Under the pieces are notes generated by a model. It did no database searches and was not told the origin of the DNA. It worked only from the letters and a program-made list of their open reading frames with translations. A stretch of 24,449 nucleotides of DNA from Fidelibacterota bacterium (GTDB taxonomy: Bacteria; Fidelibacterota; Fidelibacteria; Fidelibacterales; Fidelibacteraceae). The stretch covers positions 92,782 to 117,230 of the forward strand of contig JAOZRH010000001.1 of assembly GCA_029931905.1 (NCBI GenBank). The letters are read 5' to 3'. The translations under genes were made by a program, and so were the position numbers. Below are positions 3,421-23,990 of the stretch, one piece after another. Every line of letters starts with the position of its first letter. The first letter of the stretch is position 1.

Positions 3421-3470
3421 TACACAAATATGGCAAAAGTATGATATAATAATTACTGGTTAGTCAAAAA

Positions 3471-3501
3471 AAGGTGTCATTATCAATTTATATGACACCT
3501 T
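3471..3501 (+). terminator. 10-bp perfect hairpin (AAGGTGTCAT / ATGACACCTT) between the operon end and nrdG
   Basis: Perfect inverted repeat with an 11-nt loop, an A-run upstream and a T-rich tail. An extended -10-like TGATATAAT sits at 3442-3450. Confidence 0.5.
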
Positions 3502-10000: not shown

Positions 10001-10019
10001 TGATTCATATAATGAATAA
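4056..10019 (+). CDS. nrdD: Anaerobic (class III) ribonucleoside-triphosphate reductase carrying four inteins (1987 codons, ~681-aa extein)
   Basis: Extein junctions reconstitute conserved NrdD segments: ILIPY|CYAINAS, QQFVH|SVNHLSRNSNE|SPFTNISIF and KVASC|CRMINDEE. A C-terminal Zn ribbon (CPECG) and the glycyl-radical region RVVGFFTPVKSWNPIRRDW are present. No in-frame TAG. Confidence 0.95.
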   Translation: MNIVDNFSSTFHNSADTEYTRKQMAKALTFNIKRKYKSLSDEEVVDKSEIIMKTHGLSKDNFNGLKVVQALIANNINDVSIDDNSNKNEKTIAGLFSEANTSVKKIAGYDLLYRVMKEMYGKIRAKRLTGEMLDYSLGLSDSGNILIPYCMYGNTPIYVRYNGVVKIITFKKLYKLFEDFHTDKGTYTEVSFKDLYKPVDIKTAVYAKNVGNSATSKNTSVLKTPPHEKQTLEIWDNTNGWVNVSRITRRNNHDEFVLYQIDDGDFALVTTDHLVYMGDGSEKCAGELQIGETILKESDFKLPDVHEYINVNTDLAYLLGFILGDGNAMSGDINNSVRTLGFSSKEFNMLNMEYFGCSFKENSFTKTLPVNFLNWEKDSKLAFIAGLIDADGCIHKPQYNLVNIRMMSYATVNILSDIMKTFDGIHGVKKRIDGNSIKTCMYEVKFKVTKDSGLLKYCNKLKNAYNDAPDQFDNYNENLSHGKTGNSICKIIRFYKDDIEDTRFLSDEVKYVYDITTDTSRFYANGMVQHNCYAINASQLNLIGRDFGILPSKPCKRIGSYVSSLCETIHQMSSHVAGAIAIGTLFFDIAHLAILKMDIPLDNLKDNVKTRKHFENELQQFVHCVTEDTEVLTPTGFKTYNELHIGDPIYTWKDGHLNTQQIDALNVDTYNGEMHRYSGRCIEQVVTPEHRVLYHDRKHYIKKSSELIDKNSRLNIPINAINDNNVDIDLSDDLISLLAIILTDGSLMYNRKKLQNIIIKKSYNRFGIDFIKDTLDNLNYTYSYKDTIVDSFVNCNDVEYDQIKMKNYIISKNDSEKIFAILNNTREEIPKILTEMSNRQCKLFTDIWSKFSGYYKFETGQNMRMQCDNENVANTLQHILFLAGYGSRITYRDLGNDKDTLYVIPYHTNTKTVTNKEKFTYDGVIWCPTTKDGVVVFRKNGKIFISGNSVNHLSRNSNECVTEDTEVLTPSGFKSYNELHVGDPIYTWKDGNMEIQPTQRVNVNEYDGIMHQYEGRDYNQVVTPNHNVLRKKYNSHLYELIPSSEIFNNEMSESMPVAFNVTNEVDFNISDDMLKLCTIVLCDETYGEYEVNDYSLDVENSKEISTLLDGKKTELPSWFTKLSQRQANIVIDTWKRFDGHCEDDKTKLQCDNHVIADQLQHLVVLAGYGSIINERIIGKNKTATIYVNIYQRKNKQATNKNIVHYKGKVWCPTTENGIVVYRKDGRIFISGNSPFTNISIFGRGKIKYILENDFDWYFTKPEDSKLTDTQWVDYCTEYIYELQKLFVDFFDKGDPLNNGLPYRFPIVTINFSKKKSDGEWKIVDDQLLSDILEKDIYRYNIFTSEGSKVASCCFDANQNVLYRSSDGIGLVDFKTFINDIPNNSNTKIFHNGFWKSFKKVKIDYEDKLYKIVTENGKCITVTGDHEFPTLLGDKRVEDLTKDDHLMSNTKQLAPIQKLQNKLTYEQGYLIGYILGDGSFHTNMTGITLSLNEDCVAETVQNIKIALNDFGIEYDPIVKSENNVIYVHINNTKFVKMIMEYVPSNTAENKQFNIKILDNTIECRRGILSGWYATSGDTSNKCYTASKILIDQMDTLCTTLGIQTIRNESYDKNHVLYCLMQCDVSNESSEMFYKWHNNSIYFKIKSIELVNNTDDSVYCVEIKDDSPHFTLPNGIITHNCRMINDEEMLEMAGQSNSFGAGALASLGSHRVVTINYNRIALEAESVDDFWRVYKYRIEASRDILKAHKQLIKVLRDAGLQSFIENGWINMQRLFSTIGILGIYECGLTMQEKFGINPDTFKEEILSFLNKRVKRYTREEPNNIFNVEQIPAESFAVRLAKTDAILYGEKLVPHKLYANQFVPLWHEANVFERLSEDGKYNQLLTGGGIVHATIGERVAPSQARKIIEYAVKVGSEHFALNAIYSNCENNHMHFGDHDTCPECGANIEDKLQRVVGFFTPVKSWNPIRRDWEFPRRTKINLSTVDSYNE
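4503..5648 (+). mobile_element. NrdD intein 1 (382 aa), LAGLIDADG type
   Basis: Starts with Cys (CMYGNTPIYV) and ends VQHN followed by Cys (+1). Contains LAYLLGFILGDGNA and LAFIAGLIDADGC. Confidence 0.85.
5925..6899 (+). mobile_element. NrdD intein 2 (325 aa)
   Basis: Starts CVTEDTEVLTPTGFKTYNELHIGDPIYTWKDG and ends VVFRKNGKIFISGN followed by Ser (+1). Has the endonuclease-like block LISLLAIILTDGS. Paralogous to intein 3. Confidence 0.8.
6933..7751 (+). mobile_element. NrdD intein 3 (273 aa), paralogue of intein 2
   Basis: Starts CVTEDTEVLTPSGFKSYNELHVGDPIYTWKDG and ends VVYRKDGRIFISGN followed by Ser (+1). Only 11 extein codons (SVNHLSRNSNE) separate it from intein 2. Confidence 0.78.
8112..9089 (+). 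mobile_element. NrdD intein 4 (326 aa), LAGLIDADG type
   Basis: Starts CFDANQNVLY after KVASC and ends GIITHN followed by Cys (+1) of CRMIND. Contains YLIGYILGDGSF and ILSGWYATSGD. Confidence 0.85.
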
Positions 10020-10586: not shown

Positions 10587-13500
10587 ATGACAATAGCAAG
10601 TAGATTAGTATTAGTTGCAGGTGAGAGTTCGGGTCCAGCACCAGAAGGAAAGTATTATATCTATGCACGCAATGATGGTGTTGTGATGCGAGTTGACGAT
10701 GTTGGTGAAGAAGTCATTATTGGGCGTGATGGTTCCCAAATTCCTTCATTAGGGGAGTTGACAAATGTAGATACTACCAATGTAGAAATTGGTTAGTTTC
10801 TTACAAAAACTACAGAGAATGGATTTACATTTACACCACCAGTTCCCGGTCCACAAGGAGAACAAGGTATTCAGGGTATTCAGGGTATCCAAGGTTTAAA
10901 AGGTGATAAACCTGATCATGAATAGATTGATACCAGTATCAGATTTCAAAAACCAGATGGTACTTGGGGTACACTGATACAATTAAAAGGTAATACTGGT
11001 GATCAGGGAATTCAAGGAGAACGTGGTGAGAAAGGTGATACCGGAGATCAAGGAATACAAGGTATTCGGGGTGAACAAGGAATACAGGGTGTAAAAGGTG
11101 ATAAAGGTGATAAGGGTGAACGTGGTGAGAAAGGTGATAGGGGAGAACAAGGTGTAAAAGGTGATAAAGGTGATAAGGGTATTCAGGGTGAACAAGGTAT
11201 AACGGGTGATACTGGTGCACAGGGACTTCAAGGTATTCAGGGTGTTCAGGGTATTCAAGGTGAAGGATTTCATATTGATGGTAATGGAAATTTTTCAGAA
11301 GCTACCATCATGGATATAGAACAGAGTTCTGGTGCTACACCAAGTAATAAATATCTATATTTAATTGAAGATGATAATAGATCTGATAAAACCACACCAA
11401 TAAATAATCCAGATTTGTCTGGATATTTGGTATCATATGATGGTTCTGTTTGGTATAGCTATGGTAAAATTACAGGAGTTAAAGGTGAACAGGGTGTTCA
11501 GGGCATCCAAGGTATTCAGGGAGAAAAGGGTGATAAGGGTGATACCGGAGATCAAGGAATACAGGGTGAACAGGGCATCCAAGGAATACAAGGTGAACGT
11601 GGTGAGAAAGGTGATACCGGAGATCAAGGAATACAGGGTGAACAGGGTGAACAAGGTATTCAGGGTAATACTGGTGATCAGGGAATTCAAGGAGAACGTG
11701 GTGAGAAAGGGGATGCCGGACAAACTGGTGAACAAGGACTTAAGGGTGATAAAGGTGATAAAGGTGATCAGGGAATTCAAGGTGTAACTGGTGATCAGGG
11801 AATTCAAGGTGAACAGGGTATTCAGGGTGAGCAAGGTGATCAAGGGATAAAAGGTGATACTGGAGATCAAGGAATACAGGGAGAACGTGGTGAGAAAGGT
11901 GATACTGGACAGAAAGGTGATACTGGAGATCAAGGAATACAAGGAATCAAAGGTGACAAAGGTGATACTGGAGATCAAGGAATACAAGGTATTCAGGGTG
12001 TTCAAGGTATTCGGGGTATACAGGGACCAAGAGGAGAAGGATTCCACGTTGATGCGATTGGTGATTTTGATGAATCAACTGTTACTGCAATTGAAACAAA
12101 TTCAGATGCAACCACCACGGATAAATACCTTTATTTAATAGAGGATGATAATCGAGTTGATAAAACATTACCATTAAATGTTATAGATTTATCTGGTCAT
12201 TTGGTATCTTATGATGGTGTTCAATGGTATAATTATGGTCAGATGGGTGGTATTCAAGGTCCAGCAGGATCAGATGGTAGGGATGGTAGAGCATCACAAG
12301 ATTAGCATCATGGCTCAGGTGTACCTGTTCCAAATTCTTCATATGCAGAAGGAGATTATTATTTAAATATCGATGATGGTAAAATTTATAAATATACTGC
12401 AGGTACATGCCAAGGTCAACTTGAGTTGGTGCATGAAACATCTAATATTATGTTTGGTGATGCTATTAAGTTTGTTAAAGATGATATAGAGATCATAATC
12501 AATGATGCAGATGCAAGATATTCTGGATTTGGTATATTCTATGGTAATTCATTTGATACAGCATATATGGGATCATGTAGATACACTTATTATAATGGGG
12601 CAACTGCACAATGGAAATTTGCATTACCAGAATCTGGTGATTGGGAAATCTTCATGTAGTACCCAACACATAATAGGGCAACAAGTGGTGCCAATTGTAA
12701 ATTCTTATCAGACAATGGTGAAGAATCATTTACTGTTAATCAGAGAAATAATTCGAATCAATGGAATTCACTTGGAACATATACATTTTCACTTGGTTCT
12801 TTTGAATTTATTGGTAATATTCGTGGTGAGAAAGGTGACACAGGTGAGAAGGGTGACACTGGCGATGTGGGACCAAAGGGAGATAAAGGTGATAAAGGTG
12901 ATACTGGTCAAACTGGTGAACAAGGAATACAGGGGATTCAGGGTTTACGGGGTGAACAGGGGATTAGGGGTTTACAGGGTGAACAAGGTCTTCAAGGTAT
13001 TACCGGTGATCAGGGTGTTCAAGGTGATGTCGGTGAACGTGGTCCTAAAGGTGATACTGGAGATCAAGGAATACAAGGAATCAAAGGTGATACTGGAGAT
13101 CAAGGAATACAAGGAGAACGTGGAATACAAGGAGAACGTGGTGAGAAGGGTGATAGGGGTGAAAAGGGAGACACTGGCGCTGATGGAATATGTACATGTA
13201 GTGGTGGTATGATTGGTATGTTTAATGCCATAAATATGACATATCAATCTCACAATAATCAAGCTACTTTAAATATTCTATAGGATTCTGTTAAACGTAA
13301 TACCAATGGAGCATTTCAACATTCAACCATAAGCTCACCAGAAGAAATCATTGTCAAGTTTAATGGTTGGGTTGAGATTTCATTTAAACTGTCAATGATA
13401 TGCAATCATAATAATAGAATTATAACAATGGCATATGCTACTAAAAATTAGGATTAGATAGATGAATCAATTTCATATTCGTATACAAGAAATCATAGTT

Positions 13501-14615: not shown

Positions 14616-14690
14616 GCAGGTTTGGCATATTTGGTTGTGCGCTTGGCTTCCACCCAAGTTAAACGGGTTCGATTCCTGTAACCTGCTCCA
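14616..14690 (+). tRNA. tRNA-Gly (UCC)
   Basis: Acceptor GCAGGTT/AACCTGC, D arm GCAT..GTGC, anticodon stem CTTGG/CCAAG with loop CTTCCAC, T arm ACGGG-TTCGATT-CCTGT, encoded CCA. Confidence 0.88.
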
Positions 14691-14722
14691 TTATTGATCT
14701 TTGAAAATTTGTATATCTTTAC

Positions 14723-14751
14723 TTGACAAACTTAGTTTAGTTTAGTATAAT
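14723..14751 (+). promoter_or_regulatory. Promoter, TTGACAAA family (TTGACA-17 nt-TATAAT)
   Basis: Perfect -35 and -10 hexamers at 17-nt spacing. Member of the recurring cTTGACAAAt...TAGT motif. Confidence 0.65.
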
Positions 14752-14840
14752 TACCATGAAGGTAGAATAAATATTAAACTAAACTAAGGGGTCAATTGTG
14801 AAAACTTTAATGGATGAGGGGTATTTATAGATAAAAATAT

Positions 14841-14913
14841 CGGGAATACAGCATGGTGCGGTCTGCCTTTTGGATGGGTGGATTGGTGATGTCGATAATC
14901 ACATTCCCGACCA
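14841..14913 (+). ncRNA. tRNA-like element, possibly a degenerate or atypical tRNA-Pro (UGG)
   Basis: 7-bp acceptor CGGGAAT/ATTCCCG followed by A + CCA. C1-G72 and A73 are as in bacterial tRNA-Pro. T arm is perfect (GTGAT-GTCGATA-ATCAC). The only anticodon arm I can draw (TGCCT-TTTGGAT-GGGTG) has 3 G-U pairs, and the D arm is reduced. Confidence 0.35.
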
Positions 14914-15020
14914 ACAAATTTACACAAATTAATTAAAAATATTAAAAGGAAATTAAATGGTCGAAGTAAAATATAAAAAGAAAAAGATTTATTACGCGCA
15001 TCAGAATATAGGGTAATACA

Positions 15021-15545
15021 ATGGCAAAAATAAAAAATTATGTAGATAGAATATTTGTAAATGGTCCACAGTCAATTTCAATGGGAAGCGTTTGTGCATT
15101 TGATGGTATTAGATCTATTCAATTAAATGATCATAAAACATTTTTAGAATTTGGTGACTGTAGACGTAAAATACGATTACAGTGGCAATTTACAGAAGCG
15201 CCAGCACAGTATATTAATAAGATAGCATTATTGAACAAACAGCTTATATCATTTACGGAACATTTAAAAAAGTATTCACGATCTAAACCAGAAAAGTGGT
15301 ATGTTAATAGAATATGGTTAAATCCATTAAATAGTGATAGAACTGATTCGTTTTACGCATTTGATGGCTATCATGAGTTGTTTAAACCAAACAAACGTAG
15401 AATATTTATGGAAATTGCAGATTGTAATACAAAAATAAGATTTCATAAAGTACATGATGATAAAGTTGATGATGTCATATTAAAAAATGATAAAATAATA
15501 ATACTAATTAAAAACTTTATTGAACATCTTAAAAAAAATACTTGA
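15021..15545 (+). CDS. Hypothetical protein (174 aa) made of two homologous halves
   Basis: The halves share YV(D/N)RI..N, AFDG, DC..KIR and F.EHLKK. The TGA stop is embedded in the next promoter's TTGACA. Confidence 0.6.
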   Translation: MAKIKNYVDRIFVNGPQSISMGSVCAFDGIRSIQLNDHKTFLEFGDCRRKIRLQWQFTEAPAQYINKIALLNKQLISFTEHLKKYSRSKPEKWYVNRIWLNPLNSDRTDSFYAFDGYHELFKPNKRRIFMEIADCNTKIRFHKVHDDKVDDVILKNDKIIILIKNFIEHLKKNT

Positions 15546-15570
15546 CAAATAGTTTAAGTTAGTGTAAATT
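15542..15570 (+). promoter_or_regulatory. Promoter, TTGACAAA family (TTGACA-17 nt-TAAATT, preceded by TGTG-like extension)
   Basis: cTTGACAAATAGTTTAAGTTAGTGTAAATT lies about 18 nt upstream of tRNA-Met. Confidence 0.6.
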
Positions 15571-15587
15571 ATAAATATAAAAATTGG

Positions 15588-15663
15588 CGCAGGGTAGAGC
15601 AGTTGGTAGCTCATGAGGTTCATATTCTCAAGGTCGCAGGTTCAAGTCCTGCCCCTGCATCCA
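15588..15663 (+). tRNA. tRNA-Met (CAU) with initiator-like C1/A72 mismatch
   Basis: CGCAGGG/CCCTGCA acceptor with position 1:72 unpaired (C/A). D arm GAGC-AGTTGGTA-GCTC, anticodon loop TTCATAT, T arm GCAGG-TTCAAGT-CCTGC, encoded CCA. It lacks the three G-C pairs of canonical initiator anticodon stems. Confidence 0.85.
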
Positions 15664-15669
15664 AAATAT

Positions 15670-15745
15670 AGATCCTTAACTCAGTTGGGAGAGTAACTGA
15701 CTTTTAATCAGTATGTCATCGGTTCAAACCAGATAGGATCTACCA
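15670..15745 (+). tRNA. tRNA-Lys (UUU)
   Basis: Acceptor AGATCCT/AGGATCT, D arm ACTC..GAGT, anticodon stem ACTGA/TCAGT with loop CTTTTAA, T loop TTCAAAC, encoded CCA. Confidence 0.88.
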
Positions 15746-15769
15746 ACAATTTAACGGGGAGTATTCAAA

Positions 15770-16192
15770 ATGATAAGTGTAAATTTGGAATTCCTATCAA
15801 TGCCATTTACACATATAGATCCAATGATAGAAGGGCAACGAATTCATATTGCACAATATATATGTTCCGAATTATCAAAACAGAAGCGTATTGTATATTC
15901 CCCCATTATTCACTTTGTTCCAATTGCTAAAAAATTTGGTATGCTAACAGATTGGAAATATTGGGAAGAATTATGTAAGTCAATGGTAGTTCGTTGTTCG
16001 CAAGTTACTTTATTAAAATTCGATGGATGGGATCAATCCGTTGGTGTTGCGGGTGAACTTGAAGTCGCAAGAGTATATGAAAAGAAAGTAGAACAAATTG
16101 ATCCCGAACAATATATAATTGCCCTTAAAGCACTTGAACTTGAATATGATTATTGGGTAAAAGGTATAAGGTTTGTAGATGTATATAGATAA
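15770..16192 (+). CDS. DUF1937-like (nucleoside 2-deoxyribosyltransferase-fold) protein
   Basis: GGGGAG RBS. The pattern IVYSPIIHFVPIA...DGWDQSVGVAGELEVA matches the SP..H....W...DGW..S.G...E signature I associate with DUF1937. Confidence 0.55.
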   Translation: MISVNLEFLSMPFTHIDPMIEGQRIHIAQYICSELSKQKRIVYSPIIHFVPIAKKFGMLTDWKYWEELCKSMVVRCSQVTLLKFDGWDQSVGVAGELEVARVYEKKVEQIDPEQYIIALKALELEYDYWVKGIRFVDVYR

Positions 16193-16199
16193 ATTATAT

Positions 16200-16274
16200 A
16201 CTCTGGTCGTCTAATGGTCAGGACACAAGACTTTCAATCTTGTAACGTGGGGTCAGTACCCATCCAGAGTACCA
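16200..16274 (+). tRNA. tRNA-Glu (UUC)
   Basis: Aligns with bacterial tRNA-Glu: ACTCTGG TC GTCT..GGAC, anticodon loop CTTTCAA, acceptor 3' strand CCAGAGT, A + CCA. The T loop GTCAGTA is non-canonical. Confidence 0.85.
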
Positions 16275-16306
16275 ATTATGTACAGTCAAATATATTAATA
16301 GTGGTT

Positions 16307-16398
16307 TTAATGGTCGAATAGCCAGAGGTAAACCATTAATAAAGACCCGTAAGAGACAAATTAATCGAACAAGAATGTGATTAGTCAGAACCTTACGG
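16307..16398 (+). ncRNA. Two-hairpin structured spacer between tRNA-Glu and tRNA-Thr (unclassified)
   Basis: 8-bp stem TTAATGGT/ACCATTAA (16307-14 / 16332-39) and 7-bp stem CCGTAAG/CTTACGG (16347-53 / 16392-98). No ORF. Confidence 0.3.
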
Positions 16399-16412
16399 TT
16401 AATTATCGAATT

Positions 16413-16486
16413 GCCGAATTAGCTGAGTGGTTCAGCCTTGGATTTGTAACCCAATAACATCAGTTCGATTCTGATATTCGGCTCCA
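16413..16486 (+). tRNA. tRNA-Thr (UGU)
   Basis: Acceptor GCCGAAT/ATTCGGC, D arm GCTG-AGTGGTT-CAGC, anticodon loop TTTGTAA (stem has one A/C mismatch at 31:39), T arm ATCAG-TTCGATT-CTGAT, encoded CCA. Confidence 0.85.
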
Positions 16487-16493
16487 AAAAAAT

Positions 16494-16769
16494 ATGATAC
16501 ATATTTCGACTAATACACTTGGCTATAATCAATCACAATAGATTAAACGTTAGAAGAATGGTGACGAAGATGGTATATGTGGAACAACGCAAACATCTAC
16601 CCACATCAAACGTAATCCATATACAGATGGGGTTCCAATAGAATTACATCATGAAGATGGAGATATTAGGAACAATACATCAGACAATCTTAAGATACTT
16701 TACCCTAATTGTCATTCATTGACACCAACATTTAGAGCATTAAATAAGAAATCTGAAAGGAAACGATAA
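16494..16769 (+). CDS. Small HNH endonuclease with 2 in-frame TAG codons
   Basis: ATG lies 7 nt after tRNA-Thr. TAG at 16539 and 16551. C-terminal ELHHEDGDIRNNTSDNLKILYPNCHS is a classic HNH motif. The TAA stop overlaps the next ATG (TAATG). Confidence 0.65.
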
Positions 16770-17011
16770 TGATTTCACGTATAATGAAATTGCCAAAGCA
16801 CGATAATGTTATTGTTGGTAGGGATCTATCAAATGCATTTGAAGCTGGTGCAGTATATGATGTTAAAAAAATACAAGATCAAATAATTATTACTAAGATT
16901 GGTATGACCCGACTTTCTAAAAGTAGATTTGATGAACCAAATGAAAATAGTGACATTTCATCTATATTATTATCTGGAAAATATTTATTAACTGAAAATG
17001 ACGTACTATAA
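16769..17011 (+). CDS. Hypothetical protein (80 aa)
   Basis: Intact ORF, translationally coupled to the HNH gene. TAA stop. Confidence 0.55.
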   Translation: MISRIMKLPKHDNVIVGRDLSNAFEAGAVYDVKKIQDQIIITKIGMTRLSKSRFDEPNENSDISSILLSGKYLLTENDVL

Positions 17012-17023
17012 AAGGATATTATA

Positions 17024-17368
17024 ATGATACATCACTTTATGACATTCGAAGCAATTGTTCAACATATGAAAGAAAATTTTCAGGTTGTAAATACTTCTAA
17101 TGCAGATGATTCAGTTGATGGATTTGATAGATCATTTAAATGTGAAATCAAAGAGTATGAGATTAAGTTGATATGGGCAAAGAATTATATATCATCAATA
17201 AAACCAGAAAATGAAATTGAAACAACGACAGAACTTTATTTACATGGTGATAAGATTCTTACTTATACAACCGATTCATATACAACCACATTTAATTCTG
17301 ATGATCATAAAATGTATTTAATTTATGAAGCATTAGGAAAACCAAAATTAAAAATAGATTATACTTGA
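17024..17368 (+). CDS. Hypothetical protein (114 aa)
   Basis: AAGGA RBS. The TGA stop is embedded in the following TTGACA -35 box. Confidence 0.55.
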   Translation: MIHHFMTFEAIVQHMKENFQVVNTSNADDSVDGFDRSFKCEIKEYEIKLIWAKNYISSIKPENEIETTTELYLHGDKILTYTTDSYTTTFNSDDHKMYLIYEALGKPKLKIDYT

Positions 17369-17393
17369 CAAATGATCTATAATAGTGTAAGTT
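17365..17393 (+). promoter_or_regulatory. Promoter, TTGACAAA family (TTGACA-17 nt-TAAGTT with TGTG extension)
   Basis: cTTGACAAATGATCTATAATAGTGTAAGTT lies upstream of a structured leader and tRNA-Gln. Confidence 0.6.
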
Positions 17394-17413
17394 AGTATAA
17401 AAATTAAACAGTT

Positions 17414-17543
17414 TTATATATCTCTGCTGATTGATCACCAGATGGGCATTAGATAGCTCGACTTAGCGGTTGATTGATGGTTGTGTGACTTGAACTCATA
17501 TGACTGCTAATGTTTGACCTGAATGACAGGTACGGATATATAA
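17414..17543 (+). ncRNA. Structured ~130-nt leader between promoter and tRNA-Gln (unclassified)
   Basis: 9-bp closing helix TTATATATC/GATATATAA, long-range GCATTAG/CTAATGT pairing, and local hairpin ACCTG-AATGA-CAGGT. GC-enriched. No ORF. Confidence 0.3.
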
Positions 17544-17556
17544 CTTAAATAATTGA

Positions 17557-17633
17557 TGGGGTTTAGTTCAGTTTGGTAGAACAGCAGGTTTTGATCCTGT
17601 ACGTCATCCGTTCAAATCGGATAACCCCTTCCA
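17557..17633 (+). tRNA. tRNA-Gln (UUG)
   Basis: Acceptor TGGGGTT/AACCCCT (1:72 U/U unpaired), D arm GTTC-AGTTTGGTA-GAAC, anticodon stem GCAGG/CCTGT with loop TTTTGAT, T arm ATCCG-TTCAAAT-CGGAT, encoded CCA. Confidence 0.85.
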
Positions 17634-17652
17634 CTAACTTACAGGAGTTGTC

Positions 17653-18084
17653 ATGCCACGTAAATGCAAATGTTCAAGTTGGAAAGAGAATTTTCCTATA
17701 ATCAATGCGCCATTTCAAGAACCACATTCCAATTATGCACCATATGAGGCATTACCATTCAGTCACTGCCCTTGGTGTTCTAAAATGTTATTTGAATATG
17801 AAGAAGCACCAGAGAGACTTAGGGTAGAATCAACAACCATTAATGACATGCATCATATTAGATTATATGAAGATGATAAAGTTATTGATGAAATGGTATG
17901 TGAATTTAAAATTGACATCAATTATTGTCGTATGACTATGTTAAGATGGTATGATAAAATGGGTGGCACTTCAAAAATGGCATCTTCTGCCCGTGATAGA
18001 CTCAAAGGTGGCAAGTATAATTCTACTCCAAGAGGTAGAGTTTGGACACAGACACAATGGGAACGAAGGGGAAAAACAAATTGA
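17653..18084 (+). CDS. Hypothetical Cys-rich protein (143 aa); possibly extended to 18184 by a frame change
   Basis: AGGAG RBS. CKCSSW...HCPWC suggests a zinc-binding N-terminus. TGA stop at 18082. The +1 frame stays open and protein-like up to 18184. Confidence 0.6.
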   Translation: MPRKCKCSSWKENFPIINAPFQEPHSNYAPYEALPFSHCPWCSKMLFEYEEAPERLRVESTTINDMHHIRLYEDDKVIDEMVCEFKIDINYCRMTMLRWYDKMGGTSKMASSARDRLKGGKYNSTPRGRVWTQTQWERRGKTN

Positions 18085-18189
18085 AACACTTGAAAAACTG
18101 TTTAATCATAGGGAACAGGAAGTGATAGATAAAACAAAAGAACGTTCTGATGCACGTAAAAGACTTATAAAATTGAAAAAATGATTTAT

Positions 18190-18279
18190 GGTGGCTGTGG
18201 TGAAATTGGTAGACACGCAGGGTTGTGATCCCTGTGCCTTTAAGTAGGCGTGAGGGTTCAAGTCCCTTCGGTCACCCCA
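18190..18279 (+). tRNA. tRNA-His (GUG) with G-1/C73 but a class II-like long variable arm
   Basis: G(-1) + GTGGCTG...CGGTCAC + C73 + CCA and anticodon loop TTGTGAT, as in E. coli tRNA-His. The D arm GTGAAATTGGTAGACAC is tRNA-Leu-like. The 17-nt variable region has a GCCT/AGGC stem. Total 89 nt. Confidence 0.7.
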
Positions 18280-18295
18280 TATTAAAAGGATATAT

Positions 18296-18544
18296 ATGAA
18301 ATACCCTGTTACTTGTTCAATACTTGGATTTTTTGGCATTGCTGGAATTGTTCTTACTATATATTTTAATGTTACATTCAAACGGATTGACATCCCAAAA
18401 GGTAGCATTGGTATCGTATGGCAAGAAGATAAGCACCTAACAATTGAATCAATTCATAAATCAGGAATTTTATTCATTCAACATAGCTCAACCGTTAATA
18501 TTTATCCAGACTTTGATACTGGTGCAATAAAGGAAACATTATAA
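18296..18544 (+). CDS. Small membrane protein (82 aa)
   Basis: AAAGGA RBS. N-terminal hydrophobic segment VTCSILGFFGIAGIVLTIYF. Confidence 0.55.
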   Translation: MKYPVTCSILGFFGIAGIVLTIYFNVTFKRIDIPKGSIGIVWQEDKHLTIESIHKSGILFIQHSSTVNIYPDFDTGAIKETL

Positions 18545-19111
18545 ATGAAACAACTTATTGGTTTAAATAATTTCGTCAGAAGACAGGTTGAAGGTTCAAG
18601 ATTTTCATACTTTTATGGTTCATGGCAAAGATTACTTAATCTATGCAATGATACAATCAATGAAACCAATACAATTAAAGGACAGGATGGCGTAGTACTT
18701 CTTAAGGTTGATCCAAAAGATTTCTATACTGGTTTGGTCCAAGTATCAGAGTTGGACAATATTGTAGCAAAATTGATCAAGCGTCAAGAAAATGAAGCAC
18801 CTTTTATTAATGTGACGGTTCTTAGTGCACAACAACCTGCTAAATTTGTTGAAATTGTACTGTATTCATATGATAGACTCAGGTTGAACAATGAACAAAG
18901 TACAGAATGTGATTGGGAGATCATTTGTATTAATGCATACCCCACATCAGAAGCATCACCAATGACCCCTTTGACTATGGCAAGAAATTATCTTGATCTT
19001 GAAGGTGGAACAAAGTCAGTTTATACTGCCGAAGAATTTGCCAAATCCATTGTTTATTGGTCAACCCATGCAATGGTAGATCCAGTAGAACCATTTGAAA
19101 AAAAAGTTTAA
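18545..19111 (+). CDS. Hypothetical protein (188 aa)
   Basis: The ATG immediately follows the previous TAA stop (TAAATG, 18542-18547). Intact ORF, TAA stop. No family recognised with confidence. Confidence 0.6.
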   Translation: MKQLIGLNNFVRRQVEGSRFSYFYGSWQRLLNLCNDTINETNTIKGQDGVVLLKVDPKDFYTGLVQVSELDNIVAKLIKRQENEAPFINVTVLSAQQPAKFVEIVLYSYDRLRLNNEQSTECDWEIICINAYPTSEASPMTPLTMARNYLDLEGGTKSVYTAEEFAKSIVYWSTHAMVDPVEPFEKKV

Positions 19112-19114
19112 TGT

Positions 19115-19190
19115 ACCGATATAGCTCAGTTGGTAGAGCACCTGCTTCATACGTAGGTTGTCACCGGTTCAAGTCCAGTTATCTGTACCA
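19115..19190 (+). tRNA. tRNA with CAU anticodon (elongator Met or Ile2/lysidine type)
   Basis: Acceptor ACCGATA/TATCTGT (one C/U mismatch), D arm GCTC-AGTTGGTA-GAGC, anticodon stem CCTGC/GTAGG with loop TTCATAC, T loop TTCAAGT, A73 + CCA. Confidence 0.8.
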
Positions 19191-19353
19191 TGTATTATAA
19201 ATAACAGATATAAAATAATACAATTAATTATATATTAACGCACTTAAACAGAGTTTCTTGTCAGTGATTTGAATATATATAGTTATGGCTCAACAATAAA
19301 TATATTAGAAAGAACAGGTATATTGATTCCGCCCAATATATTAATTTAACATT

Positions 19354-19391
19354 TGTATGGATTTGTACAAAGGCTTGTATGAATCCATACA
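19354..19391 (+). terminator. 10-bp hairpin (TGTATGGATT/AATCCATACA) with T-rich tail
   Basis: Perfect inverted repeat with an 18-nt loop, followed by TAAATTTTATTT. Lies between the last tRNA and the next promoter. Confidence 0.5.
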
Positions 19392-19422
19392 TAAATTTTA
19401 TTTAAAATATACAAATTTTCTC

Positions 19423-19451
19423 TTGACTTAACTGAATTTATGATATATATT
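19423..19451 (+). promoter_or_regulatory. Promoter (TTGACT ... TGATATATAT extended -10) ahead of the RNA-repeat array
   Basis: -35 TTGACT at 19423-28. The TG-n-TATATA / TATATT element lies 15-17 nt downstream. Confidence 0.55.
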
Positions 19452-19506
19452 GTTTTACATTAAATGGAGCAATGATCTTTTAAAACTTATTACCGCAAAT
19501 TTATAC

Positions 19507-19594
19507 AGTGGCTATAAATATTCATACTTCTATTTTATTATATAAAGACGAACCGGACTTGATCCGGCACTTAATTGAATATTTTCTTACCATT
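19507..19594 (+). ncRNA. Structured RNA repeat unit 1 (novel motif)
   Basis: P1 AGTGG/CCATT, core GGCTA-TAAATATTC-ATACTTCTA, P3 CCGGA-CTTGA-TCCGG, P2 partner GAATATTT(T). Confidence 0.6.
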
Positions 19595-19604
19595 ACTTTA
19601 AATC

Positions 19605-19673
19605 GGGGCTATGAGAATACATACTTCTATATAATTAAATTGAAATTAACTAAAATGTATTCTTAATTACCTC
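19605..19673 (+). ncRNA. Structured RNA repeat unit 2
   Basis: P1 GGGG/CCTC, core GGCTA-TGAGAATAC-ATACTTCTA, P3 TAATT-AAATTGA-AATTA, P2 partner GTATTCTTA. Confidence 0.55.
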
Positions 19674-19677
19674 CACA

Positions 19678-19776
19678 TTTTACACTAATAAGTGGCTATA
19701 AAGTAACATACTTCTAATTCTGTCCCTTATGGGACTCAGCATTTGATTGAATTCGGTTATTTTAATTACCACTTAC
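19678..19776 (+). repeat. 99-bp perfect direct repeat, copy A
   Basis: Identical by eye to 19856-19954. Contains RNA unit 3. Confidence 0.85.
19690..19774 (+). ncRNA. Structured RNA repeat unit 3
   Basis: P1 AAGTGG/CCACTT, core GGCTA-TAAAGTAAC-ATACTTCTA, P3 GTCCC-TTAT-GGGAC, P2 partner GTTATTTTA. Confidence 0.6.
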
Positions 19777-19859
19777 AAAAGGCTATAATGGTTCATACTT
19801 CTAAAAACCCAACTCTGCCTTGAAAGCAGACCATATTAACGAATTATTAATTACCTTTT
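19777..19859 (+). ncRNA. Structured RNA repeat unit 4
   Basis: P1 AAAAGG/CCTTTT, core GGCTA-TAATGGTTC-ATACTTCTA, P3 CTGC-CTTGAAA-GCAG, P2 partner GAATTATTA (two G-U pairs). Confidence 0.6.
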
Positions 19860-19954
19860 ACACTAATAAGTGGCTATAAAGTAACATACTTCTAATTCTG
19901 TCCCTTATGGGACTCAGCATTTGATTGAATTCGGTTATTTTAATTACCACTTAC
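19856..19954 (+). repeat. 99-bp perfect direct repeat, copy B
   Basis: Identical by eye to 19678-19776. Contains RNA unit 5. Confidence 0.85.
19868..19952 (+). ncRNA. Structured RNA repeat unit 5 (identical to unit 3)
   Basis: Same sequence as unit 3. Ends 23 nt before the ATG of the 693-aa gene, with the AGGAG RBS in between. Confidence 0.6.
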
Positions 19955-19975
19955 TTTTAACAGGAGAATATCATA

Positions 19976-22057
19976 ATGAAAGACCTCAAATTGAACCTAT
20001 CTGTTATAGGACTCACTAAGCTCAAATCTGTATTCATTGAAACACCCGATAACACCGTAGTTCATAGTAATACACACCTTGTTATTTCCGTAGCTCATGA
20101 ATTTATGAACCTTGGTTATATAATGTCAGGTGAATTATATAACAAACTTTGCACATTGCAAGATAATGAGATTGTTGGTATTGCCAAACGTACTCTTAAA
20201 GGTTTGAGAGTTATGAAAGGTGCCCACGTTGAACATAATCCAATGTATCCCAATTTTCCTCAACAAGTTATTGATATGTCATTGGCAGAATCTTTGATTA
20301 ACCAATTGATCCATTATTGGTCTGCTGGAACATTACTTCCTTCATATGAAAAAGAAAGACGGTCATATGGATTGGAAAAAGGTGTAAAGTATCAGATGAT
20401 TGGAGTTTGTTCACGTGAAGATATTTTTGGTGTATTTACCAGATTATTGAGTTCAAATGATTCCATTAAATCAACTGATAAAGAGATTATAGAGTATTTC
20501 ATTGAGAATTATAACCCTTCTGAATTGCCATATCCAGCATCAATTCCTTATAAAGAGAATGTATGTATTGTTGGTGGTATGTTTATTACTGCTGGTAAAG
20601 ATATTAATGGGTTGGTTAAGAATGCAACCGATGTATTACGTATTGCTACATATTTGAGTGGTGGTGATATTTCTCTTGTAACTAACACCAAATTTAAATC
20701 ATTTCCAAGATCTATTAGACGTGTATTTGCAAATGCACTTGAAAATGTAATTAAAGAAGAAGATATCAAACGACATCAGAATAAGTGGATAAAATTATTC
20801 CATTCACTTCATATTGGTGAATATTCTAAAAAGGTTGCTGATATTGCACGTAAAGCAAGAGAAGGAAAGGCATTATATTCTGTTGCCGGTGATATTGTTG
20901 CTAACCTGAATAAAGGTCAGATCAAAGATGTTGTGAAATTATTACAGCATAGAGCAGGTGACTATGCACGTATGTTAGATGAATTACTTAGAAAGAATCC
21001 TGAGTCATCTGATATGATAGTCCACTATTTCTCCGGTGTTGCAGATAAGGTATCAACCCGTGTATTATTGCAGGTATATTCACATTTTATGAATAGAAAG
21101 TCTTTTATAAAAAGAAAACGTGTAATTTTTCCAAAGGGTAGTGTTCAGTCTGCATTGATCTTACCAGATTATACAACTGAAATCAATGATTATGTGATTG
21201 AAAATATAATCGATGTTGTTGATGAAACGCTTCTTGAAAGATTTGGTAAATTGGAAGATATGAATAAGGTGTTTATTGATGAAAGACTTGTTAATTGCCC
21301 ATTACCTACACAGTTACGTTCTGCATCTGAAAGCGTTAGTACGGTTGCCAGAGGAACACGTATGCCAATTGGAGATGATTCAACCCTTAGATTTTTTGTA
21401 TATTGGAAAGGTGAGGATATTGATTTATCTGCAACCTTACATGATGAAAAATTTGAACAGATTGGTTATTGTTCATATACAATGCAGAAGAATTCTGAAT
21501 ATAAAGCATATCATTCTGGTGATATGACACATGCACCATATGGTGCAACTGAATTCATTGATATTGAAATTGAAGGTGCATTAAAATCCGGTGCAAGATA
21601 TATTATAATGAACCTTTATGTATATGCTGGTCCAAATTTTAATAAACATGAGGTATGCTTTGCTGGTTGGATGACCCGAAGTGAACCAAAATCAAATGAA
21701 ATATTTGAACCTAAGACAGTTGTGAATAAGTTTGATATTGTTTCTGCTTCAAGAAATGCAATTCCGGTTGTATTCGATCTCCAAACCCGTGAAGCAATTT
21801 GGTGTGACCTTACAACTCCCGGCAAACAGCATTGGGGTGGAAATAATGTTGAGAGTAATAAGGCATCAACTGAACAGGTACTTGATGCAATTGTACATGT
21901 TAATAAGTTTAATTTATATGATTTATTCTTACTCCATGCCAATGCCAGAAATGCAGAATTTGTGGATACAAGTGAAGATGCAGATTATGTATTCGGGTTA
22001 TATGACGGAATCAATCCAACTAATATAGATATTATTAATTCCGAGTTCATAGTATAA
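19976..22057 (+). CDS. 693-aa protein with alpha-rich N-terminal region and TerD-like C-terminal beta-sandwich domain
   Basis: AGGAG RBS. The C-terminal FFVYWKGEDIDLSATL...YHSGDMTHAPYGATEFIDIEI...ARYIIMNLYVY...FAGWMTR...AIPVVFDL...AIW follows the TerD pattern (W-G-DLD-S, H-SGD, E-I-I-L, hydrophobic strand, F). No in-frame TAG. Confidence 0.7.
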   Translation: MKDLKLNLSVIGLTKLKSVFIETPDNTVVHSNTHLVISVAHEFMNLGYIMSGELYNKLCTLQDNEIVGIAKRTLKGLRVMKGAHVEHNPMYPNFPQQVIDMSLAESLINQLIHYWSAGTLLPSYEKERRSYGLEKGVKYQMIGVCSREDIFGVFTRLLSSNDSIKSTDKEIIEYFIENYNPSELPYPASIPYKENVCIVGGMFITAGKDINGLVKNATDVLRIATYLSGGDISLVTNTKFKSFPRSIRRVFANALENVIKEEDIKRHQNKWIKLFHSLHIGEYSKKVADIARKAREGKALYSVAGDIVANLNKGQIKDVVKLLQHRAGDYARMLDELLRKNPESSDMIVHYFSGVADKVSTRVLLQVYSHFMNRKSFIKRKRVIFPKGSVQSALILPDYTTEINDYVIENIIDVVDETLLERFGKLEDMNKVFIDERLVNCPLPTQLRSASESVSTVARGTRMPIGDDSTLRFFVYWKGEDIDLSATLHDEKFEQIGYCSYTMQKNSEYKAYHSGDMTHAPYGATEFIDIEIEGALKSGARYIIMNLYVYAGPNFNKHEVCFAGWMTRSEPKSNEIFEPKTVVNKFDIVSASRNAIPVVFDLQTREAIWCDLTTPGKQHWGGNNVESNKASTEQVLDAIVHVNKFNLYDLFLLHANARNAEFVDTSEDADYVFGLYDGINPTNIDIINSEFIV

Positions 22058-22121
22058 TAATTTAATATAGGACATTATCATTATTAATGAATGTGCATGA
22101 TTTAATTGGATAATTTATGAA

Positions 22122-22160
22122 AAGGGTGGACTTTAATTAGTCTGCCTTTTTTATTTTTTT
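22122..22160 (+). terminator. Rho-independent terminator
   Basis: AAGGGTGGAC / GTCTGCCTTT stem (10 bp including G-U pairs) with an 8-nt loop, then a TTTTTTATTTTTTT tail. Confidence 0.65.
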
Positions 22161-22161
22161 A

Positions 22162-22191
22162 TTGACAAAATTTAGTGAATAGGGTTATAAA
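22162..22191 (+). promoter_or_regulatory. Promoter (TTGACAAAA ... TTATAAA)
   Basis: TTGACA at 22162-67. The -10-like TTATAA/TATAAA element lies 17-18 nt downstream. Confidence 0.55.
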
Positions 22192-22210
22192 ATCAATACA
22201 AAAATACAAT

Positions 22211-22507
22211 ATGAGAAATCATAAAGCACACCACCTATCATATTTAACATTTAAAGGGCAAATTCCTTCCGATATGGTTGTTTGCCACGAATGTGATGTG
22301 AGACATTGCGTTAATCCAGAATATCTATTTTTGGGTACACAACAAGAGAATATGAAGGATGTGATTGAGAAAGGTCGAGTAGCAACCGGTAATTGGTTTG
22401 ATAAGAGTAATCCTTCTAAAAGTAAACCCATAATTGTACATGGTAAAATATTTGACTCCGGGAAAGTAGTAAGTGATGTATTAGATATAAATTATATATT
22501 TGTTTAA
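22211..22507 (+). CDS. HNH homing endonuclease (HNH_3-like)
   Basis: KAHHLSYLTFKGQIPSDMVVCHECDVRHCVNPEYLFLGTQQENMKDVIEKGR matches the H-R...G.IP....V.H.CDN..CVNP.HL.LGT...N..D pattern. I prefer the ATG at 22211 over the GTG at 22175, because the GTG lies inside the promoter. Confidence 0.8.
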   Translation: MRNHKAHHLSYLTFKGQIPSDMVVCHECDVRHCVNPEYLFLGTQQENMKDVIEKGRVATGNWFDKSNPSKSKPIIVHGKIFDSGKVVSDVLDINYIFV

Positions 22508-23585: not shown

Positions 23586-23990
23586 TTGGATTCAAAACAA
23601 GTAATTTTAGTACGAACAGATTTAAATATGCCAGTTGGTAAGATTGCTGCACAAGTTGCACATGCATCAATGTTAATTCTTCTTAATAAGATGGATAATG
23701 AACGTAAATCTGGATTAATCACACGTACATTATATCTTCATGATAATACACCAATGGAACATTGGATTCAAGGTGGTTCGTTCACTAAAATTGTATTAGC
23801 GGTTCCTACAGAAGATGAAATGATGAACCTTCATTATAAAGCAAAAACATCTGATGTCCCAACCTGCGTTATTACAGACGAAGGACGAACATGCTTTAAT
23901 GACAGAGCAACCAATACATGTGTTGCTATTGGACCTTCTCGGATAGATATCATTGATAAATTAACTGGACATTTAAAATTATTAAAATAA
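23586..23990 (+). CDS. Peptidyl-tRNA hydrolase, PTH2 family
   Basis: AAGGAG RBS 8 nt before a TTG start. KQVILVRTDLNMPVGKIAAQVAHAS...KIVLAV...ITDEGRTCF...TCVAIGP...GHLKLL matches the PTH2 signature. Confidence 0.8.
   Translation: MDSKQVILVRTDLNMPVGKIAAQVAHASMLILLNKMDNERKSGLITRTLYLHDNTPMEHWIQGGSFTKIVLAVPTEDEMMNLHYKAKTSDVPTCVITDEGRTCFNDRATNTCVAIGPSRIDIIDKLTGHLKLLK

Follow-up and report, generated by a model that had tools for sequence, protein, structure and literature searches.

The window analysed here, a 24,449-nt stretch from a Fidelibacterota bacterium (assembly GCA_029931905.1, contig JAOZRH010000001.1, positions 92,782-117,230, forward strand), carries five RNA units on the + strand at 19504-19954, 5′ of the gene for a 693-amino-acid (693-aa) protein. 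An earlier reading, made from the letters alone (hereafter the sequence-only reading), had described the units as five tandem copies of an unclassified, structured + strand RNA with compensatory base changes. The follow-up reported here, for which the evidence base is computational throughout, extends that description beyond the single sequence: the units represent an apparently new and widespread RNA family with strong covariation, absent from Rfam 15, in which the loop of the window (AUACUUCUA) is a minority variant and in which some relatives have YrlA-like tRNA mimics at the position that varies.

The five units, with the elements of the first read from the sequence, are listed below. Bit scores are those of covariance model R1, described in the next section, whose E-values are rough because its calibration was short; z compares the minimum free energy (MFE) fold of each unit, folded alone with RNAfold, with dinucleotide shuffles.

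19504-19597, + strand: unit 1 (43.2 bits, E 2e-9; z -2.8)
19507-19511 with 19590-19594, + strand: helix P1 of unit 1
19510-19514, + strand: GGCUA of unit 1
19515-19523 with 19577-19585, + strand: helix P2 of unit 1
19524-19532, + strand: conserved loop of unit 1, AUACUUCUA
19553-19557 with 19563-19567, + strand: hairpin P3 of unit 1
19601-19677, + strand: unit 2, GGCUAU core from 19607 (46.2 bits; z -2.8)
19688-19776, + strand: unit 3, core from 19694 (48.9 bits; z -3.8)
19777-19859, + strand: unit 4, core from 19781 (36.4 bits; MFE fold identical to the centroid, z -2.2)
19866-19954, + strand: unit 5, a 99% duplicate of unit 3 (repeat family D2; 48.9 bits)

All five units share a common plan in which P1 encloses GGCUAU-P2-AUACUUCUA...P2′-AUUA-CC, and the MFE fold of each places P1 around P2 around P3 (z from -2.2 to -3.8). 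The exact core GGCTAT-N7-CATACTTCTA occurs five times in the window, on the + strand only (starts 19510, 19607, 19694, 19781 and 19872, spaced 87-97 nt apart according to a repeat finder), against a chance expectation of ∼0.29; five copies were reached in none of 100 shuffles. Similarly, R1 recovers exactly five units from the window, at 36-49 bits, with the next best match at 10 bits. The tandem units of shared architecture were thereby recovered as described, and the helix sequences quoted in the sequence-only reading proved correct base by base. P2 of unit 2 is formed by UGAGAAUAC with GUAUUCUUA below a short, A/U-rich apical part; units 3 and 4 have P1 helices AAGUGG/CCACUU and AAAAGG/CCUUUU and P3 hairpins GUCCC/GGGAC and CUGC/GCAG, respectively. 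The segments 19675-19776 and 19853-19954 form a 102-nt duplication at 99% identity, and the tandem duplication behind unit 5 is 178 nt long and spans units 3-4, so that units 3 and 5 are duplicates and the five units represent four distinct sequences.

Directly 5′ of unit 1, and 3′ of the promoter-like site described below, lies UUAUUACC (19487-19494, + strand), in register with the AUUACC of the unit 3′ ends. It belongs to repeat family D3, in which 19487-19543 aligns with 19584-19640 at 72%, and might possibly be the remnant of a sixth unit that has lost its 5′ half; no matching 5′ half was found with up to three mismatches allowed.

The description of the motif as unclassified was upheld. 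At E ≤ 10 no Rfam family matched the units in the region 19200-20100, and ARAGORN called no tRNA there; the eight tRNAs called in the window, which Rfam also recovered, lie elsewhere. A blastn search (word size 11) of the array against 50,697 GenBank phage records gave no match; thus, the DNA of the array is not itself conserved, and conservation is confined to the motif and the fold.

A covarying RNA family linked to one gene

To describe the family, a seed alignment of 69 strictly defined units was assembled, including four from the window, and used to build R1, with a P1 of 8 bp and a P2 of 10 bp. Standard pairs occupied 90.2% of cells in this alignment, compared with 56.1% when the 3′ partners were shuffled and 42-50% when the partner was slid by 1-3 columns; two-sided changes were present at 15 of 18 pairs, and the covariation score was 0.867 versus 0.198. 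Comparable values were obtained from a second alignment of 150 model-aligned matches (89.2% paired versus 57.5%; covariation score 0.813 versus 0.192). Two additional controls were applied. In an all-against-all mutual-information scan of the seed alignment, the top 12 column pairs were exactly P1 and P2 pairs. In a test anchored solely on the 5′ core (285 distinct cores), at least 14 of 16 pairs formed in 64% of cases with a unit's own arms versus 8.9% with the arms of another unit, and at least 15 of 16 in 34% versus 0.9%. Both alignments and the scan therefore bear out the compensatory changes first noted in the window. G-U and U-G pairs were frequent, with 77 U-G pairs at a single position at the base of P2 in the 150-match alignment, which fits an RNA read from the strand of the gene.

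Conserved nucleotides cluster around the helices. Invariant in the seed alignment are the two G-C pairs closing P1, the C and A of the 5′ junction G-G-C-Y-A-U, and U-x-C-U-U-C-U atop P2, after which an A stands in three quarters of units; near-invariance extends to the C-G and U-A pairs atop P2 and to the 3′ junction N-U-U-U before C-C. From these sequences we infer a small, pyrimidine-rich internal loop at the junction, in which C and Y face U and U, an A-U pair may form and a single base is bulged. Among 296 distinct units, the loop reads UCCUUCU in 262 and UACUUCU, the form of the window, in 22. The closest relative (L207, protein identity 62%) has four units, all with the A variant of the window, and another relative (L208, 51%) has four of the common UCCUUCU form. 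The relation of the A/C variant to the protein clade was mixed overall: the closest relative shares the A, yet the A is scattered and mixed within arrays. A role for UCCUUCU as an anti-Shine-Dalgarno mimic, or in pairing with the ribosome-binding site (RBS) of the gene, was considered and set aside; only 4 bp are possible in the window, and the motif is unchanged in Bacteroidota-type loci with downstream units.

The distribution of the units was assessed in 80 viral and 80 bacterial loci picked via protein homologs of 25-54% identity. The first lead had been a viral contig (L006) encoding a 31%-identical homolog, with eight TACTTCTA core motifs 5′ of the gene and right after tRNA genes; among the six hits of an exact scan of viral contigs for the window-type core, this one was real, and the other five, without arms or a nearby gene for the protein, were chance. 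In total, R1 gave 343 matches at E ≤ 1e-3, and at least one match in 155 of the 160 loci (77 of 80 viral, 78 of 80 bacterial); one of the five loci lacking a unit has no upstream sequence. The linkage persists down to ∼25% protein identity. Every one of the 343 matches lies on the strand of the protein gene, in keeping with the + strand RNA first proposed, and none falls inside the gene.

Units range from 49 to 150 nt (median 74) and are separated from their neighbors by a median of 9 nt. Bacterial loci mostly have one or two and viral contigs two or three, with up to six by R1 at E ≤ 1e-3 and eight core motifs in L006 and L051. They are confined to the upstream side of the gene in 99 loci, to the downstream side in 33, and found on both sides in 23; the 33 loci weaken the suggestion that the array is simply a leader. 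On the upstream side, a median of 29 nt separates the last unit from the start codon (122 loci; starts predicted by a simple heuristic); on the downstream side, the median distance from the stop codon to the first unit is 24 nt, and the gap is often just 1-7 nt. This spacing and tight placement point to co-transcription of RNA and mRNA. Units 2-4 kb away from the gene were also found (L125, L138, L051 and L112). In Brevibacillus (L125, L130, L131, L138, L140, L148 and L152), a second well-conserved unit lies ∼1.9 kb upstream with other open reading frames (ORFs) between, besides the unit at the start codon, an indication that units can function outside the mRNA leader. Cultured phages also have units, in unannotated gaps: Xanthomonas phage XacN1 has three upstream of ORF396, Rhodococcus phage Weasels2 three downstream of gp266, and Lactobacillus phage LpeD two upstream of orf166. 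An Aliikangiella chromosome likewise has units in an unannotated gap beside the gene.

All of these loci were chosen through the protein, so the share of units far from the gene is gauged only by a partial reverse test. In this test, GGCTAT-N8-CTTCCTTCTA (16 specified bases) was sought in 2.9 million viral contigs; 33 stretches were recovered, 24 of which have the gene alongside on the same strand, and several of the remainder have the motif near one end of the stretch. No other conserved neighbor was detected by all-against-all BLAST of 2522 flanking ORFs, in which any cluster occurred in at most eight of the 160 loci, so that the conserved module consists of the RNA and the 693-aa-type protein. 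Rfam searches of the whole window and 14 related loci at the gathering threshold, of the array region at E ≤ 10 and of seven viral loci at E ≤ 1e-3 together returned tRNA, transfer-messenger RNA (tmRNA), noise and sub-threshold matches to YrlA, and no family covering the units. Full-text literature searches, with most subscription journals outside their scope, returned no paper linking the protein family or the motif to RNA.

In phages, the module usually sits inside tRNA clusters, with recurrent neighbors that include a CCA-adding enzyme, HNH and GIY-YIG endonucleases, and a Nudix/cytidylyltransferase protein. A gene of the CCA-adding enzyme/poly(A) polymerase family (PolyA_pol head plus RNA-binding domain) was near the module in six viral loci (e.g., L023, 1716-3005); such genes are of interest because YrlA, a Y RNA compared with the units below, can receive CCA. 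Two module-bearing phage contigs, L012 (9164-9509 and 3554-3639) and L007 (2512-2595), have tmRNA (156 bits) and tRNA-Sec-like genes near the array.

The ∼690-residue protein and its surroundings

The 693-aa protein belongs to phrog_33734 and to a large family. Homologs of similar length number >1000 in a 90%-clustered protein collection, and an exhaustive profile search gave 3585 clusters (50% identity) at E ≤ 1e-3, 2051 of them at E ≤ 1e-30; at least 508 stretches in a species-representative bacterial genome set encode a relative, and full-length structural relatives from Lactobacillus phage LpeD and Campylobacter phages are present in BFVD. Pfam gave no match to the protein, and at E ≤ 1 neither TROVE nor TerD was detected in the 31 family members searched; a profile search against PDB sequences was equally negative, and no PADLOC defense-system model matched. 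An AlphaFold2 model based on a 91-sequence alignment (mean predicted local distance difference test score, pLDDT, 90.7; predicted template modeling score 0.88; the single-sequence model, with a pLDDT of 37.7, was unusable) is mainly helical over its first ∼460 residues, forms a beta-sandwich at ∼465-625 and finishes with two C-terminal helices. In a Foldseek search of the PDB, the sandwich alone was matched, to TerD structures 2KXT (E 5.7e-7), 3IBZ, 2QNG and 2QZ7, with target-normalized TM-scores of 0.61-0.69 and, for 2KXT, 3IBZ and 2QZ7, probability 1.0; no Ro60 structure was among the 50 PDB matches listed. The label TerD-like, given to the gene by the sequence-only reading, therefore holds for the C-terminal domain by fold (2KXT), and fails both by sequence, where Pfam finds nothing, and for the N-terminal domain.

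Classical TerD proteins are stand-alone proteins of ∼190 aa encoded in ter operons with TerC, TerB and TelA, and we know of no RNA partner for TerD. The protein shares with TerD (2KXT, 3IBZ, 2QZ7) the C-terminal beta-sandwich and its G-x-D-I-D-L-S-A motif; unlike TerD, it has an additional N-terminal domain of ∼460 aa, lacks ter neighbors, and falls below the Pfam TerD model by sequence. Many invariant residues of the N-terminal domain are Arg, Lys and His, which would suit nucleic-acid binding and prove nothing. The second half of the helical domain together with the TerD-like domain (residues 300-669) also matches the NCBIfam family NF041916 (MXAN_6230/SCO0854, RING domain-containing; E 4e-107); however, the match scores 360 bits against a family cut-off of 600, and the protein has no RING N-terminus. 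Judged by this profile match, NF041916 is a paralogous relative.

Sequence signals around the array and the gene outline a candidate transcription unit:

19354-19391, + strand: terminator-like hairpin and T-run (17-pair stem, then TAAATTTTAT; inverted repeat I1), which would close the upstream tRNA-rich transcription unit
19423-19451, + strand: sigma-70-type promoter-like site (TTGACT, 17 nt, TATATT; 10 of 12 consensus matches)
19962-19967, + strand: Shine-Dalgarno-like AGGAGA
19976-22057, + strand: ORF of the 693-aa protein
22117-22154, + strand: terminator-like hairpin and T-run 3′ of the 693-aa gene, which would end the array-plus-gene transcription unit

The promoter claimed at 19423-19451 is indeed the best + strand match near the array, as a match to consensus only; such sites overall are not enriched there. 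Only 21 nt, with AGGAGA inside, separate the last unit from the ATG at 19976, and a scan of the window found no terminator-like site between array and gene. The hairpin at 19354-19391 also explains spurious Rfam microRNA matches obtained at E ≤ 10.

Directly 5′ of the array, eight tRNA genes on the + strand (14616-19190: Gly, Met, Lys, Glu, Thr, Gln, His and Met) are interspersed with small ORFs; the tRNA-His call, at 18191-18279, is unusually long (89 nt), and a DUF3228-family protein (E 2e-14; 18545-19111, + strand) is encoded just 5′ of the last tRNA-Met. Directly after the terminator of the TerD-domain gene lies an HNH homing endonuclease gene (22175-22507, + strand), followed ∼1.5 kb further on by a PTH2-type peptidyl-tRNA hydrolase (23631-23990, + strand). 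Elsewhere, the window encodes a family B DNA polymerase (59-2701), an anaerobic ribonucleotide reductase, NrdD, in an intein-interrupted ORF of 1987 aa (4056-10019, + strand; matches to Intein_splicing and a LAGLIDADG homing endonuclease, and a second, weak Hint match near residue 960), and a collagen-like repeat protein (11310-12305, + strand) with matches to many phage tail-fiber families (phrog_6320 and others). The parent scaffold also encodes an IS605 OrfB/TnpB-like protein, ∼4 kb outside the window (L167, 16155-17543). This 271-kb metagenomic scaffold looks like a large phage; the tail-fiber-like collagen protein and the family B DNA polymerase support a phage origin.

Y RNA-like design and competing explanations

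The segment above the conserved loop varies from ∼10 to 90 nt across the family and is a short hairpin, P3, in the window. In 16 of the 296 distinct units, viral and bacterial loci both being represented, it holds a complete permuted tRNA-like module, in the order stem, T arm with a GGTTCGAATCC-type loop, loop-closed acceptor-like stem, and D arm of TAGCTCAGTTGGTAGAGC type. The first unit of the closest relative, L207, is one example; no T or D arm is present in any of the five window units. A unit of the phage contig L007 (3391-3525) has an unpermuted tRNA-like insert instead, with an Rfam tRNA match at 3424-3494 (47 bits), and the two forms thus represent two different ways of mounting a tRNA mimic on one chassis.

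This modularity recalls Y RNAs, and YrlA in particular. Chen et al. (2014; PMC4201824) describe YrlA RNAs as encoded beside Rsr on the same strand, with T and D arms as well as a stem resembling an acceptor; close to the 5′ end lies a GNCGAAN0-1G motif, GGUCCGA in animals, that is thought to contact Rsr (PMC4201824). The units are like YrlA in being RNAs of ∼60-150 nt, often in several copies, on the same strand beside a partner gene in bacteria and phages, and a subset of the family has the same permuted mimic (T arm, closed acceptor stem, D arm). As in Y RNAs, which are 80-130 nt long, a stem formed by the 5′ and 3′ ends leads to a large loop with a variable module, here enclosed by P1 and P2. 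Unlike the partner of YrlA, however, the neighboring protein is not Ro60 and has no TROVE or von Willebrand factor A (vWA) domain by Pfam, PDB profile search or Foldseek, searches by which Ro60/TROVE homology was considered and rejected. In place of the Rsr motif the units have the invariant GGCYA and UCCUUCU, the fourth place of GGC[U/C]A never being G, and a tRNA-like part is entirely missing from the window units. Against the Rfam YrlA model (RF02553), tRNA-like units of relatives scored 37.9-44.3 bits, none reaching the gathering score of 69; four of six matches were confined to model positions 23-85, the tRNA-like part, so the Rsr-binding part is not shared. The window itself gave no match to the YrlA or Y RNA models (RF02553, RF00019) at E ≤ 10. 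No linkage to RtcB or PNPase was seen among the flanking ORFs of the 160 loci. By these sequence comparisons, the system resembles the Ro60/Y RNA system and is not a member of it: its partner is non-TROVE, the Ro60 motif is absent, and the YrlA threshold is unreached.

The units are probably co-transcribed partner RNAs of the adjacent TerD-domain protein, Y RNA-like in design. We favor this reading because of the exclusive, orientation-specific coupling to one gene, the absence of any other conserved gene, and the Y RNA-like modular design, and because the downstream-only and both-side loci fit co-expression better than 5′ regulation. Array and gene would be made as one transcript, running from the promoter-like site at 19423-19451 to the terminator-like site at 22117-22154, from which the units would be excised or in which they would be kept as a multi-site 5′ extension. 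Each unit folds with P1 formed by its own ends and closed by two G-C pairs, followed by a probable internal loop of C-Y-A opposite N-U-U-U and then the 10-bp P2; P1, the junction, P2 and the conserved loop would form a constant handle for recognition by the protein, and the variable head above the loop would be the effector, adaptor or decoy end, as in Y RNAs.

Several observations weigh against partner RNAs. The protein has no recognizable RNA-binding domain, its N-terminal domain being unmatched by PDB profile search, Foldseek and Pfam. The tRNA-like module is present in only ∼5% of units and in none of the five in the window, to which the adaptor idea may therefore not extend. Pairing was among the grounds on which both seed units and model matches were chosen, a bias that the two additional controls reduce and do not remove. 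Finally, the usual distance of 8-30 nt from the last upstream unit to the start codon would also fit a cis-acting translational operator.

Such an operator is the main rival explanation, and we consider it unlikely while giving it more weight than any other alternative. The units would act in the mRNA only, as autoregulatory elements; the protein or another factor would bind the unit beside the RBS or in the 3′ untranslated region and control translation or stability, with no role for free RNA. Proximity to the start codon (median 29 nt; 21 nt in the window, where the last upstream unit may occlude the RBS), the terminator-free interval between array and gene, and strict confinement to the strand of the gene are all as expected of an operator. 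However, 33 loci have units downstream only and 23 on both sides, some units lie 2-4 kb from the gene, arrays reach six model matches or eight core motifs with a different helix sequence in every unit, and an operator would have no need of elaborate tRNA-like inserts.

The order of promoter, tandem RNA repeats and protein gene, an arrangement that Fineran and colleagues are said to have described for toxIN in 2009, raises the alternative of a pair resembling a type III toxin-antitoxin system, in which the adjacent protein, a toxic or abortive-infection effector, would cut the tandem RNA repeats and be neutralized by them. The resemblance to ToxI/ToxN includes an RNA array immediately 5′ of a single protein gene, proposed co-transcription, and a self-contained two-part module that occurs in phages and bacteria. 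Nevertheless, the units are 49-150 nt long with diverged, covarying helices rather than near-identical repeats of 34-45 nt (only units 3 and 5 of the window are identical), a single unit is common in bacterial loci, and units can follow the gene; moreover, the protein is unrelated to ToxN, AbiQ and CptN, with no ToxN-like family match and no PADLOC defense model. We regard this explanation as improbable.

Even less probable, in our estimation, are tandem riboswitch aptamers, whose loops would bind a small ligand, such as a nucleoside-like metabolite of the Ter system, and control the downstream gene. Tandem aptamers exist in other systems, the single-stranded nucleotides of the internal loop are invariant, and the units are 5′ of the gene in most loci, as this explanation would have it; against it stand the 33 loci with downstream units only, a variable apical region that tolerates inserts of 10-90 nt, tRNA mimics included, and the absence of any Rfam riboswitch match or expression platform, with no terminator in the window interval.

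The position of the array just after the eight tRNA genes, together with the tRNA-like arms of relatives, might suggest functionless, decayed tRNA genes or tRNA-derived repeats of a phage tRNA cluster, which is very improbable: T and D arms are missing from the window units, which neither ARAGORN nor the Rfam tRNA model (RF00005) calls, and GGCYAU...UCCUUCU...UUUCC is not a tRNA feature, being kept with covariation across phyla beside one gene. Least credible of all are DNA-level repeats (iterons or protein-binding sites) or a CRISPR-like or TIGR-like guide array, suggested by tandem repeats with alternating conserved and variable segments, given that the many G-U pairs would become A-C mismatches if the opposite strand were read, that all matches keep to the strand of the gene, that the variable segments pair within the unit, unlike the unrelated spacers which, with identical repeats and a Cas or Nop-domain protein, make up guide arrays, and that Pfam found no Cas or Nop domain and the CRISPR-repeat matches were noise (E 8.4).

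Beyond the reading of the units as partner RNAs, we more tentatively propose, at slightly less than even confidence, that the module is an unrecognized and widespread ribonucleoprotein of bacteria, archaea-associated lineages and phages, in which a ∼690-aa protein would be loaded with cis-encoded, modular Y-like RNAs through the GGCYA/UCCUUCU handle, and in which exchangeable heads, tRNA mimics among them, would link it to tRNA or the translation machinery. Both the RNA chassis and the protein partner are new within protein-partnered, Y-like modular RNAs. If the proposal is correct, this would be a second system on the plan of Ro60/Y RNA, evolved independently, and this family of TerD-domain proteins would gain its first functional lead; RNA binding is now a concrete, testable hypothesis for a large protein family of unknown function and for the poorly understood TerD fold. 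Cultured, tractable carriers are available in the phages XacN1, Weasels2 and LpeD and in Niallia, Brevibacillus and Paenibacillus strains. The occurrence of YrlA-type tRNA mimics on a different chassis with a different protein suggests that the design of a handle plus a tRNA mimic recurs, which would make the role of the tRNA-like domain of Y RNAs approachable in a second system, and the location of the module inside phage tRNA clusters may be relevant to the ways in which translation is managed or protected by large phages.

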